DNA of 63,676 nucleotides, counting the filler, from Actinobacteria bacterium UBA7524 (GTDB lineage Bacteria > Actinomycetota > Coriobacteriia > Anaerosomatales > UBA912): assembly GCA_002478275.1 (NCBI GenBank). It is 7 parts of 6 records of this genome, joined end to end, with 100 filler letters (N's around TTAATTAATTAA, not from the genome) between each part and the next. Parts side by side here need not be neighbours in the genome. Positions count along the whole stretch, not along the records: positions 49,182 to 54,263 come from DLMY01000040.1; 6 more parts are not named here. One strand, written 5' to 3'. Position numbers and translations under genes: made by a program. A model generated the notes under the pieces. The model had not been told where the DNA came from. It saw only the letters and a program-made list of their open reading frames with translations, and made no database searches. This document shows positions 49,196 through 54,263 of this stretch, in pieces (the stretch's first letter is position 1; each line of letters opens with the position of its first letter).

Positions 49196-49258
49196 ATCTA
49201 ACGTTCTTTGGCTTCAGCTGCGCCGCGAAGCGGCGTCTGCTGGAAGCCAGGGTTAGCC
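49196..49258 (-). mobile_element. Integron attC recombination site (63 bp)
   Basis: Minus strand: R'' GGCTAAC, spacer CCTGG, L'' CTTCCAGC (extra C), core AGACGCCGCTTCGCGGCGCA, L' GCTGAAG, spacer CCAAAGAAC, R' GTTAGAT. It lies 28 bp after the helicase stop. Confidence 0.85.
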
Positions 49259-49286
49259 CCTTCACGGCAACCCTGAAGACAACACC

Positions 49287-51845
49287 CTATCCGTACGCTT
49301 CCACCGCCTCTTCCCTCGCCACCACGGTGTCATACAGACCGTAATGCGTCAGCCCGGGATGACTGTCGATCCCTGTGTAGCGCAGCGACGCATCCTCATA
49401 TCGGCGAAACGCGAACACAGCCTGGTTCATGCGCTCTGTGTTGAACACCCTCAGCTGAACAAGTAGGTGGAAGTCCTTGACCGTAAGGCCGGTGACCGCG
49501 AGGAACAACTCCGGCTCGAGCTTGGTGATGACGTCCTGGAGCGTGTTCTCGCGAAAGTCGGTCAGGTACATGAACGCGGGAATCCGCGTAGCGAACTTGA
49601 TCAGCTTCTCCTGGACGAGCTTCCGCTTGGACTTGTACTCCTTCTCCTCGTCCGTCAGTTCCCGCTTCTCTTTCGCCGTCAACGTGCCATCTTTCGCCTT
49701 GTTCTTGAGCTCCTTGATCTTGTCGCTCTGGTTGATGATCGTCTCGATGACGTTGTCGCCGAGAGCGCGCCAGCCCTCGATGCGCTCAACGGCGGCCATC
49801 GCCTCTGGGTTGTCCAAGATGCGCCGAAGGGTGTCGTTATCGACATTGACGAGCAGCGCCGACTCCCACTTGCGGGCAAGCAGCGTGCCCGAGGTGCCCG
49901 CCATCGCGATATCGAGAATACTGCCTGCGTCAACCGCCACCATGTTGGCGCCGTCGTAAGCCAGGACGGGCAGGAAGGAGACGAGGTCTCTGACCGCGTT
50001 CTCCGGGTTCGTCTCATTCGGCGAGAGGCCCAGCCCATACTCGGACAGCTGCCGCAGCGCCCGGGTCGGCGCGAAGTCGAACACGAAGCAGATCGGCTTC
50101 AGGATCTCTTCTTCGTTCGGGTCGTCGCCGTTGGGATTCTTGATCGCCCATGGCGACTGCACGCGGAACGCGGCCTGGAAGTACGTCTCCGGTGACGTGA
50201 GATTCCTGAGCATCAGGATGGAAGACCACTGCGGCACCGTCACGCCGGTCGTCAGCTTGCCGCACGACAGCGTGATGGTCTTCGTGTCGAATCCGCTGCC
50301 GATCGCAGCGCGCACGGGCGGCAACGCATCCAGACCTATGCCCGCCGAAGCCCCCGCCGCCACCACGACCTTGTAGTCGTGCCAGAAGGTGTTGTGTCTC
50401 GCAGCCAGCAGGTTCGCCATCGCGTGACAAGCCGCGACATTCGGCATGAACCAGAACGAGTGCTGCAAGTACGGCAACAGACGCACATCTGAGTACGGCC
50501 AGGGCGGTCGGGTTGCAGTCCTCAGGGCATCCACGGTCTGAGGCATGTATGCCCCCCGGATGATATCGAGCCACTTCTGTACCGCATCTTCGTGCTCGAA
50601 CCGAGCGGTGGCTCCTGCACCCGTGGCTGCGAAGAACGCGTTGAGGTCGAACTCGTCGAACTCCCCCGTGCTCGCGATGGCCAACAGCTCGTCGGGCATC
50701 TGGTACGTGAGCAAGCGCATTTCCGGCAGAGCCGCATAAAGGTTCCACTCACCGGGGTGCTTCGACGCGAACTCTTCTTTGGCGCGCTGTTCGTCCGTGT
50801 ACGTCCAGTTGAAGATCTGCTCTTCGATGAACTCACCGGTTGCCAGTGCGCGAAACGGTGTCCCTGAGAGGTACAGATACGCCTTCGTGGTGATAGGCAG
50901 GAACTCGGTCTCCTTCTCCGAGAGCGTGCTGAGATCCTCGTTCACCACCTCAAGACCTGAAGCGTACTCGAGGCTGGTCTCCCTCTTGGCGACCTCCTCG
51001 TCCTCGCCCTCGAAGAGCTCCTTCGCGGTGTCGCGCCAGGCTCCGAAGTGGTACTCGTCGAAGACCACGAGATCCCATTCCACCTTGTGGAGCCACTGGT
51101 TCTTGGGCTTGATGTTGCCAGCATCGTCGCGACCGAGGAGGTCTTGGAACGAGCCGAAGTAGACCAACGGCGTCCTGCGATCGACCTTGCTGGGGTCGAG
51201 ATCGGAATGGCGCGACATGTACAGCCATCCGTCAAAATCCGCGTGCGTCTCTAGATCCGTGCGCCACGCGTCCTCGACGGCCGGCTTGAACGTCACCACG
51301 AGCACACGCCTCGCACCGAGCTTCTTGGCCAGCTGGTACGTGGTGAAGGTCTTGCCGAAGCGCATCTTCGCGTTCCACAGGAAGCGTGGAACCGCGTGCA
51401 TATCCTCGGCCCAGACAGAGTGGAAGTACGCGTGGGTCTTTTCCACGGCCTCGGCCTGCTCGCGACGCATCTGAAACGTCTCGTGGTGGGTGCCGGTGAA
51501 CTGCTGGCCAGTGCGCAACTCGACCAGCACGGTGCGCACGTCAGCGACCGAACACCGCACCCACTCCAGCTCGACGCGCTCGAAACCCTTCTTGACGAGA
51601 GCCGCACGCACGTCGTGGTCGCTGAACACCGTACCGTCATCGCGCTCGGCGGGTTCGTCGATCTCGATCCGGTAGTTCTTGATGGCGGCCGTCTTGACCT
51701 GCTCGGCGATGCGCTGTTTGACGTCGCGGGTGGTCTGTCCGATCTTAAGCAGCCCTCTGTGCGCCTCATCGTCGATCGAGTACGCGTAGATGCGCGGTCG
51801 CGCCTTGGGCTTGGGCGCGAGGATCTCTTCGATAGAGCGGCTCAT
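49287..51845 (-). CDS. GIY-YIG (T5orf172-like) nuclease fused to a SF2/ResIII-type helicase domain; putative restriction subunit
   Basis: N-terminal RIYAY...LKIGQT.R.V.QRI..Q...EW; Walker A variant NAKMRFGKT; Walker B DEYH; LSGTP; YFQAAFRVQ. ATGA-coupled to the upstream MTase. Confidence 0.85.
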   Translation of the reverse strand: MSRSIEEILAPKPKARPRIYAYSIDDEAHRGLLKIGQTTRDVKQRIAEQVKTAAIKNYRIEIDEPAERDDGTVFSDHDVRAALVKKGFERVELEWVRCSVADVRTVLVELRTGQQFTGTHHETFQMRREQAEAVEKTHAYFHSVWAEDMHAVPRFLWNAKMRFGKTFTTYQLAKKLGARRVLVVTFKPAVEDAWRTDLETHADFDGWLYMSRHSDLDPSKVDRRTPLVYFGSFQDLLGRDDAGNIKPKNQWLHKVEWDLVVFDEYHFGAWRDTAKELFEGEDEEVAKRETSLEYASGLEVVNEDLSTLSEKETEFLPITTKAYLYLSGTPFRALATGEFIEEQIFNWTYTDEQRAKEEFASKHPGEWNLYAALPEMRLLTYQMPDELLAIASTGEFDEFDLNAFFAATGAGATARFEHEDAVQKWLDIIRGAYMPQTVDALRTATRPPWPYSDVRLLPYLQHSFWFMPNVAACHAMANLLAARHNTFWHDYKVVVAAGASAGIGLDALPPVRAAIGSGFDTKTITLSCGKLTTGVTVPQWSSILMLRNLTSPETYFQAAFRVQSPWAIKNPNGDDPNEEEILKPICFVFDFAPTRALRQLSEYGLGLSPNETNPENAVRDLVSFLPVLAYDGANMVAVDAGSILDIAMAGTSGTLLARKWESALLVNVDNDTLRRILDNPEAMAAVERIEGWRALGDNVIETIINQSDKIKELKNKAKDGTLTAKEKRELTDEEKEYKSKRKLVQEKLIKFATRIPAFMYLTDFRENTLQDVITKLEPELFLAVTGLTVKDFHLLVQLRVFNTERMNQAVFAFRRYEDASLRYTGIDSHPGLTHYGLYDTVVAREEAVEAYG

Positions 51846-53464: not shown

Positions 53465-54117
53465 TCTGCCTCCACTGGGTCATCCGACGCAGACACACGG
53501 GCCAGCTCGCGAACCGTCATCGGCGGGTAGGTCTTGATGGGCACGAAGATGTCGTGCCTGGCCAGATCGGCGAAGAGCGTGCCCTCCTGACTGAACGCCG
53601 CTGATTGAGCCAGAGCGTCAAGCCGAAAATCGCGTCGCTGGAACTTGCCCTTCCCGAGGTAACCCCATTCAGCAAAGGAGATAGGCTGATCATCGATGGT
53701 GCGCATCGACAGCGCATCGCCGTGGACGAGGTTCTGCGACAGCACATACGAGGCAGCGCCGTAGAGGTCATCTGATTCCTCGAGCTGCAGATAGCTGGAT
53801 AGGACCTCGAGCATGTTGGCGCGACACTCGGTGATGTTGTCCTCGAGGAGCTCGATCCCGTAGCAGCACATGAGGGCGAGTAGGGCGTAGTGACGCCTCT
53901 CATAGTCGGACCTGCCGAACTTACTCTCGACAGCTTCAAACTTGCGCTGCAACACACGGACGAGGAAGTTGCCACTGCCACATGCAGGTTCAAGGAAGCG
54001 CGAGTCAATCCGCTCGGTTTCGCCTCTAACGAGGTCAAGCATCGCACCAACGAGCCACGGGGGCGTGAAGACCTCCCCGTGGTCGGCGACGCGCTGCTTC
54101 GACTTGATCAGGTTCAT
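53461..54117 (-). CDS. Small N-6 DNA methylase-like subunit (motif I only)
   Basis: HGEVFTP, FLEPACGSGNF and YGIEL; no NPPY/DPPY; GTGA-coupled to the next gene. Confidence 0.85.
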   Translation of the reverse strand: MNLIKSKQRVADHGEVFTPPWLVGAMLDLVRGETERIDSRFLEPACGSGNFLVRVLQRKFEAVESKFGRSDYERRHYALLALMCCYGIELLEDNITECRANMLEVLSSYLQLEESDDLYGAASYVLSQNLVHGDALSMRTIDDQPISFAEWGYLGKGKFQRRDFRLDALAQSAAFSQEGTLFADLARHDIFVPIKTYPPMTVRELARVSASDDPVEAE

Positions 54118-54240
54118 ACGCCCATTGTATTCGAGGGGCTGACGTTCGCTCGAGGAGCTGATTGAGCGCGGAAGTCAGCACTTATGCGCCTTCAGCGGCG
54201 GCAGAGGTCGATACTCATGCACTGACAATGCGCTGAATGG

Positions 54241-54263
54241 GGCTAACGCTCTTGGGCGTAACC
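54241..54263 (-). mobile_element. Right half of the preceding attC site (cut by the scaffold end)
   Basis: Minus strand GGTTACG-CCCAAGAGC-GTTAGCC, with the same 9-nt L'-R' spacer pattern as the 49196 attC. Confidence 0.65.

Follow-up and report, generated by a model that had tools for sequence, protein, structure and literature searches.

Positions 49182 to 54263 of the stretch of DNA that we analyzed (63,676 nucleotides from the Actinobacteria bacterium UBA7524 assembly GCA_002478275.1, referred to here as the window) correspond in full to contig C4 (5,082 bp according to the contig map). This contig very probably consists of one gene cassette and the edges of its two neighbors, derived from the chromosomal integron array of an uncultured member of the Actinomycetota. 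The draft genome (G000) comprises 1,814,544 bases in 60 contigs, with a completeness of 82.9% and an estimated contamination of 0.58%. All elements of C4 are found on the minus strand, namely, the 3' part of an upstream attC site, a cassette of 5,045 bp with a putative restriction-modification operon (see below), and a complete attC site of 63 nt, arranged as follows.

54241..54263, minus strand: 3' part of the attC of the preceding cassette (L' GGTTACG, 9-nt spacer CCCAAGAGC, R' GTTAGCC), from direct read.
49202..54246, minus strand: gene cassette, 5,045 bp, with the TT of the upstream R' at one end and the G of its own R' at the other, as defined by the attC sites and by the limits of homology in relatives.
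49196..49258, minus strand: the cassette's own attC, 63 nt, with R'' at 49252-49258 and R' at 49196-49202, from folds and a covariance model score of 62.5 bits.
49182..49201, minus strand: start of the next cassette, of which C4 contains 20 nt (TTAGATTCATGACGCTTGAC) before it ends, from direct read.

The first-pass annotation of this region had described an attC-bounded cassette, and each sequence detail that it gave for the complete site and its R'', L'', L', and R' boxes was borne out by direct reading. The 3' end of C4 reads GGGGCTAAC-CCTGG-CTTCCAGC-AGACGCCGCTTCGCGGCGCA-GCTGAAG-CCAAAGAAC-GTTAGAT, followed by TCATGACGCTTGAC, and the boxes are GGCTAAC (R''), CTTC-C-AGC (L''), the core GACGCCGCTTCGCGGCGC, GCTGAAG (L'), the spacer CCAAAGAAC, and GTTAGAT (R'). 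The 5' end of the cassette (GTTAGCCCC) is indeed the complement of GGGGCTAAC, and an ATG lies 2 nt past R'. The right half of another attC was also present where it had been placed, upstream of the operon. C4 begins inside this repeat, with the crossover point G|TT between 54247 and 54246; the first 21 nt of the repeat are shared without change by the L'-R' end of a complete attC on contig C58, and the agreement with that of an attC on contig C31 is 22 of 23 nt. The same annotation had read the ends as scaffold breaks at attC sites, which was right only in part. The window is a chain of contigs joined by six N...TTAATTAATTAA...N linkers, so that the joins themselves are artificial. Nevertheless, both ends of C4 do fall in or beside attC repeats, and for that reason they are still meaningful.

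The inverse core sites of the complete attC pair with each other, GGCTAAC (an RYYYAAC-like R'') with GTTAGAT (a GTTRRRY R'). Folding of the 63-nt site gave a z score of -2.6 for the top strand, where 3 of 200 shuffles folded as well, and of -3.4 for the bottom strand, where none of 200 shuffles was as good. The plus strand of the window corresponds to this bottom (recombining) strand. One G and one T are bulged in the bottom-strand fold, at the places where canonical attC sites hold extrahelical bases, which we take to be the positions named G20'' and T12''. To this single site we can add an alignment of ten full attC sites from seven contigs of G000, found by motif search and then by covariance model, with good fit at both ends. 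With R'' paired to R', L'' to L', and two bulges, 86.5% of the cells were paired, compared to 22 to 38% when the partner was slid. Compensatory changes on both sides were seen in 13 of 18 L-helix pairs, and the covariation score was reached by none of 500 shuffles. The five inner R pairs were paired in at least nine of the ten sequences, and the CTAAC/GTTAG boxes were conserved across the aligned sites. The unusual L'-R' spacer reported at first pass turned out to be a constant trait, as it measures 9 nt in all ten sites, while that of aadA1 is 3 nt shorter.

A covariance model (R1) trained on these ten sites retrieved 23 matches in G000 at an E value of ≤1 and 21 at ≤1e-4, 11 of the latter outside the training set. 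The matches were spread over ten contigs (C4, C20, C27, C28, C31, C34, C38, C42, C54, and C58). The score of 62.5 bits given above for C4 comes from this model, the C4 site being itself part of the training set. As a positive control, R1 was applied to two clinical plasmids, where it recovered the class 1 integron attC sites of aadA1 (45.5 bits), aadA16 (34.6 bits), qacL (31 bits), and dfrA27 (22.5 bits), with the correct strand each time. The negative control, four genomes of sister orders of the same class, gave no matches. The assembly thus contains at least 21 attC sites on ten contigs, and another three, only partial, were found where a contig ends or bordering masked runs. Masked N runs at C27 1750-1889 and C31 7892-8052 cut attC sites of which only the 3' parts are readable, so the count is a lower bound. 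Distal array ends were found on both C34 and C42, which indicates at least two attC clusters in G000. There is no attC family in Rfam, and a scan of the window at gathering thresholds returned only RNase P, three tRNAs, and an S-adenosylmethionine (SAM) riboswitch, on contig C3 (22287-22417, 33698-34290, and 39611-39682), all of them ordinary RNA genes with no bearing on the cassette.

The core of the C4 site had been likened to that of aadA-type attC sites, and the likeness is real. The C4 attC matched 3,113 plasmid records, mostly at 80 to 95% identity over approximately 50 nt, and in the two plasmid records that were inspected, the match was located directly 3' of aadA16 and aadA1. The similarity to these class 1 cassettes, whose attC sites are of ca. 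60 nt, extends to the short attC, the order of the boxes, an identical 18-nt core (GACGCCGCTTCGCGGCGC), and the R' GTTAGAT, with 80 to 82% identity over 47 to 50 nt. On the other hand, the aadA cassettes carry a resistance gene, whereas C4 carries a putative restriction-modification operon, and the L'-R' spacing is 9 nt in C4 and 6 nt in aadA1. Ghaly et al. (2021; PMC8352920) assign the aadA attC sites to a Xanthomonadales-like type and use 11 models, none of which represents Actinobacteria; the resemblance between C4 and aadA may therefore be convergence, and we claim no origin from it.

Comparison with other genomes of the order provided independent evidence for the limits of the cassette. 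Gene 3 of the operon was detected in 14 of 145 other genomes, scattered over five families, with protein identities of 83 to 90% in 12 of them and of 57 to 58% in two distant copies; the copy in genome G268 is broken (73 to 81%). The whole operon was found at 79 to 83% nucleotide identity in six genomes of the order. In G083, it is flanked by an attC on either side, the downstream one being its own, of 63 nt; G209 likewise has the operon's own attC, and in G135 there is an attC directly upstream. At the 5' end, TTAGCCCCATTC marks the start of homology, and the attC that precedes it differs among C4, G083, and G135; at the 3' end, homology stops at R' in C4, G083, and G209, beyond which the sequence differs. 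R1 recovered the orthologous attC sites of G083 (40.8 bits) and G209 (42.7 bits) as independent matches, with stem sequences unlike those of C4. Homology that is bounded by the crossover points, with changed neighbors on the outside, is the signature of a mobile cassette. The interpretation of C4 as an attC-bounded cassette is thus backed by covariation, by the positive control with known attC sites, and by orthologous copies that end at the recombination points.

The integron integrase IntI was searched for in 150 other sampled genomes of the class with TIGR02249 (E ≤ 1e-30; curated cutoff of 265 bits). Matches were found in 56 of the 67 other sampled genomes of the order of G000, 55 of them above the cutoff and most with 450 to 490 bits, and in none of the 83 genomes from other orders. 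One IntI of the order (470.7 bits) could be aligned over its full length with the VchIntIA structure 2A3V (E = 5e-87), and the alignment takes in the stretch between the catalytic patches, which we take to be special to IntI. Of the 146 genomes of the order (G000 among them), 133 carried attC sites of the R1 type, as did 93 of the 98 high-quality ones. Whenever both were located on one contig (G062, G098, G205, G139, G080, G191, G117, G163, G135, G187, and G077), the array lay directly 3' of intI and was codirectional with it, and three of these 11 cases are single-contig genomes. The arrays reached approximately 40 kb in G098 and 65 kb in G205, a large contig and a single-contig chromosome. 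This layout corresponds to the "inverted integron-integrase" arrangement mentioned by Cury et al. (2016; PMC4889954). The integrons of the order resemble those of Treponema, named in the same paper, in their IntI of the integron-integrase family (TIGR02249, 450 to 490 bits), in codirectional arrays that begin right after intI and comprise dozens of attC sites, and in being kept across a host lineage; they differ in that the host is an order of Actinomycetota, a phylum described as lacking complete integrons.

In a tree of 45 IntI sequences, with IntI1 as sole outgroup, deep nodes that did not resolve, and a single clade among all IntI not demonstrable, the family labels were nevertheless clustered (22 changes versus a shuffled mean of 28.4, with none of 200 shuffles as low). 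This is compatible with vertical descent of IntI. The order displays what defines sedentary chromosomal integrons: clade-wide presence, chromosomal location, and large arrays of similar attC sites. The suggestion that C4 belongs to a little-described integron lineage is supported, and more strongly than the sequence by itself could show, as IntI and attC arrays are near-universal in the host order.

Several observations weigh against assigning C4 to an array of this kind. No IntI over the TIGR02249 cutoff was found in G000 (82.9% complete), where the best matches are Xer-like (81 bits), and G169, a genome of the same family that is 99% complete, has seven attC matches and no IntI. Neither a recognizable attI nor a conserved motif was found in the 200 nt downstream of intI in five related genomes. 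In G135, G133, and G080, which account for half of the six close copies of the operon, no 3' attC was detectable and the copy ends right past the stop codon; either the attC was lost from these copies or they are precassette forms. Among 80 metagenome loci encoding the gene 3 protein, only two have an R1 match just downstream, R1 being tuned to this lineage; the matches are at L165 6560-6623 and L170 1780-1838. Elsewhere, then, the operon is mostly not a cassette. The family of the gene 3 protein is huge, with more than 8,000 matches scored and identities of 84 to 86% in genomes named for many phyla. The operon is therefore a widespread mobile module that was turned into a cassette in this lineage. 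C4 is also linked to no other contig, and for this reason its position in the array and its strict bin membership rest on composition and relatives. Finally, the only lysA of G000, on C42 (6424-7791), lies about 5.7 kb from the last attC of an array and was considered as a marker linking array and core genome. Its product has 64% identity to the LysA proteins of Micromonospora and Parafrankia and 33 to 36% to those of same-family or same-order genomes, and the marker was rejected as a foreign-type copy, which gives no proof of linkage to the core genome.

Because of the missing IntI in G000 and G169, the C4 array may be without an integrase, and it is possible, if doubtful, that the C4 cassette is real but sits in an integrase-less attC cluster (CALIN), i.e., in an array that is decaying or trans-dependent and not in a working integron. 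Closed relatives do have second attC clusters at a great distance from intI (e.g., G139 896687-904313), and in G080 the operon and intI are on separate contigs. However, G000 is an incomplete genome in which the array is shattered over small contigs, and in G185, of the same family, intI is located at the very end of a contig, which makes an unassembled intI a plausible reason for its absence from G000. The gene beside intI in G185, a type I methyltransferase, had no match in G000 in a synteny search. The presence of IntI in 56 of the 67 other genomes of the order also speaks against this reading.

It is improbable that C4 was misbinned from some other organism in the same sample, be it a different strain or species within the order or a member of an unrelated phylum; a source in another phylum is unlikely, whereas a sister strain of the order keeps a small probability. 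The contig is short and unlinked, gene 3 homologues at 84 to 86% are found in Gemmatimonadetes, Geotalea, Chloroflexi, and Spirochaetes, and the cassette contigs are slightly below the genome average in G+C. Yet the closest homologues of gene 3 come from genomes named "Anaerosomatales bacterium" (96%) and "Coriobacteriia bacterium" (87 to 90%), the cassette and its attC recur elsewhere in the order, 21 nt of the upstream half-attC are shared unchanged with the C58 site in the same bin, and the estimated contamination is only 0.58%. The composition of C4 is within the core range as well: the tetranucleotide correlation with the core genome was 0.944, equivalent to the 21st percentile of 194 core windows of 5 kb. 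For the larger attC-bearing contigs C34, C42, and C54, it was ≥0.98. As for the genome itself, WhiB (PF02467), which among 14 control genomes was found only in Corynebacterium, was present in 33 of 61 sampled genomes of its phylum (30 of 58 without the unpublished G001, G018, and G048, on which nothing else in this analysis depends) and was found neither in G000 nor in the four sampled genomes of its class. This distribution points to the phylum Actinomycetota and to a class without WhiB, and together with the composition of C4, it upholds the actinobacterial host first proposed. Better evidence of linkage than lysA comes from other parts of C42, where the identity to same-family genomes is 80% at bases 2-626 (G283) and 72% at bases 5319-6328 (G284). 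The same contig contains, at 4613-5115 around a masked N run (4802-4891), a conserved repeat of approximately 200 to 500 nt on either side, several copies of which were found in most of the 30 relatives searched (78 to 93% identity), with a second copy in G000 on C9.

The notion that the repeats are other palindromes (repetitive extragenic palindrome-like elements or terminators) flanking an ordinary restriction-modification island is very unlikely, for although G+C-rich hairpins are common after genes and a scan found no intrinsic terminators in C4, so that the attC hairpin could act as one, it would have to accommodate the conserved CTAAC/GTTAG boxes with bulged bases and covariation, the recovery by R1 of experimentally known class 1 attC sites, arrays that start directly beside IntI genes, and the absence of the repeats from the four sister-order genomes and of IntI from all 83 sampled ones.

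With C4 taken as a cassette from a chromosomal integron array, its movement can be proposed by analogy with the known integron mechanism. The bottom strand of attC would fold into an imperfect hairpin in which R'' pairs with R' and L'' with L', leaving two bases bulged. An integron integrase would then cut between G and TT, and the cassette would leave as a circle and reinsert at attI or at another attC.

The cargo of the cassette is made up of three genes, preceded by a conserved hexamer.

54124..54129, minus strand: TACAAT hexamer, separated by 6 nt from the gene 1 start codon (ATG), with TCGAATACAATGG conserved in C4 and four of five relatives (alignment A3).
53461..54117, minus strand: gene 1, 218 amino acids, like the SAM-binding N-terminal part of an N6-adenine methyltransferase (Pfam N6_Mtase, 22.1 bits, cutoff of 20.4).
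51842..53464, minus strand: gene 2, 540 amino acids, Eco57I-family N6-adenine DNA methyltransferase with IIGNPPYQ (Pfam Eco57I, 1.1e-36; PADLOC MTase_II, 3.6e-55).
49287..51845, minus strand: gene 3, 852 amino acids from an ATG that overlaps the stop of gene 2, T5orf172 nuclease plus superfamily 2 (SF2) helicase (ResIII), from Pfam and PADLOC.

By its domains, the set is a restriction-modification system, with an NPPY adenine methyltransferase, a nuclease, and an SF2 ATPase. Residues 1 to 125 of the gene 3 product match T5orf172, which is GIY-YIG-like (8.3e-7; 29.9 bits versus a cutoff of 20), the helicase part matches ResIII (1.6e-5, Pfam), and FDEYHF can be read in the translation. This protein would be the restriction subunit, and the names given to its homologues are restriction endonuclease, GIY-YIG nuclease, or type III restriction endonuclease. 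The products of genes 2 and 3 correspond to opposite ends of a single PADLOC model of a fused helicase-type enzyme (REase_MTase_IIG PDLC03626), gene 2 at positions 1009 to 1356 and gene 3 at positions 180 to 371 (6.6e-30). No solved structure matches either of these two genes by sequence. The C-terminal region of gene 2 is probably devoted to target recognition. Gene 1 contains the motif EPACGSGNFL and lacks NPPY, matches PADLOC MTase_II (2.3e-10), and has 37% identity over 54 amino acids to the N terminus of gene 2; it is predicted to encode a small methyltransferase-like protein of uncertain role. On these domain matches, the cargo is predicted to be an ATP-dependent helicase-type restriction-modification system, similar to Type ISP/III. 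The Eco57I-type adenine methyltransferase would protect the host DNA, while the T5orf172-nuclease/SF2-helicase protein would translocate along unmodified DNA and cut it. The first-pass reading of C4 as a large multigene defense cassette is supported by its 5,045 bp and its three restriction-modification genes.

Genes 1 and 2 have 4 nt in common where the first stops and the second starts, and this overlap, like that between genes 2 and 3, suggests coupled translation. The operon probably brings its own promoter. The TACAAT hexamer may be the -10 box of a leaderless transcript and would then represent a cassette-borne promoter; a scan of C4 for sigma-70 two-hexamer promoters and intrinsic terminators found none.

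The closest functional counterparts are single-polypeptide helicase-type enzymes such as the one modeled by PDLC03626 (1,359 positions), among which we count Type ISP enzymes such as LlaGI. They share the nuclease, SF2 helicase, and gamma-class adenine methyltransferase modules. In C4, however, the modules are encoded by separate genes, with the methyltransferase ahead of the nuclease-helicase, and there is an extra methyltransferase-like gene of 218 amino acids. The nuclease is T5orf172/GIY-YIG-like, unlike that of LlaGI, which is Mrr-like. Antiphage defense cassettes in integrons are reportedly the subject of a preprint by Kieffer et al. According to the preprint by Darracq et al. (10.1101/2024.07.02.601686), restriction-modification is overrepresented among integron functions, and integron defense systems are small and streamlined, mostly made up of a single gene or a pair, types II and IV being the prevalent kinds of restriction. 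C4 resembles these systems in that a putative defense system is carried as an integron cassette and departs from them in its size of 5 kb, its three genes, and its helicase-nuclease of 852 amino acids.

Other array contigs are likewise rich in defense-type genes, together with an antitoxin-like protein and IS110-family transposases. On C31, a SinI-type pair (8217-10393) consists of a cytosine-5 methyltransferase with a helix-turn-helix domain and a SinI-type endonuclease, and near it are a Schlafen AlbA_2 protein (6964-7806) and a PD-(D/E)XK nuclease (576-1736). The IS110-family transposases of C31 are at 5691-6761 (minus strand) and 10859-11887 (plus strand). Some IS110/IS1111 elements target attC sites, and insertion may explain a 6-kb gap between two attC sites of this contig. 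C34 starts with an array end (attC at 824-909 and 1601-1702), followed along this 60-kb contig by RNase H, a MobL-like relaxase, and a Type ISP-like restriction-modification enzyme of 1,154 amino acids. A lone strong attC (C54 8743-8829; 74.6 bits) is located outside any array, in an apparent integrative mobile element with genes for a tyrosine recombinase of 447 amino acids, a helix-turn-helix protein, an ATPase, RadC, a MobL-like relaxase, and ParA.

In the literature, the Actinomycetota are portrayed as nearly devoid of integrons. The complete-genome surveys of Cury et al. (2016; PMC4889954) and Néron et al. (2022) report no complete integron in Actinobacteria, and a 2026 metagenome study speaks of a "virtual absence" of integrons in Actinomycetota. 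Ghaly et al. (2021; PMC8352920) list Actinobacteriota among the phyla in which integrons were detected. We found no published description of integrons in this lineage, although the supplementary tables of Néron et al. (2022), of Ghaly et al. (2021), and of Khedkar-type recombinase surveys may list some. One order of Actinomycetota has IntI in 56 of 67 sampled genomes, and 133 of 146 carry attC arrays; the supposed Gram-positive integron barrier is therefore not general.

The mechanism behind C4 is already known, and its value lies in the host lineage, in the size and type of the cargo, and in the chance to study how the operon gained its attC. As judged from its genes, C4 would show that integrons can move a helicase-type restriction-modification system of 5 kb and three genes, larger than the "streamlined" ones, by means of an attC closely similar to those of the clinically important aadA cassettes. 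As a monoderm and anaerobic lineage, the order can serve as a model of integron biology, among others for the folding of single-stranded attC, for SOS control, and for expression when intI is codirectional, and the existence of operon copies with and without attC opens the origin of cassettes to testing. We lean, with reservations, toward the broader view that a whole monoderm order of Actinomycetota keeps an old, largely vertically inherited chromosomal integron, with arrays of up to approximately 65 kb and lineage-specific attC sites of 9-nt spacing, and swaps multigene defense cassettes between families. If true, this would overturn the repeated claim that complete integrons do not occur in Actinobacteria, or in Gram-positive bacteria generally, and the lineage may show a widespread operon in the act of acquiring an attC, i.e., the birth of a cassette.

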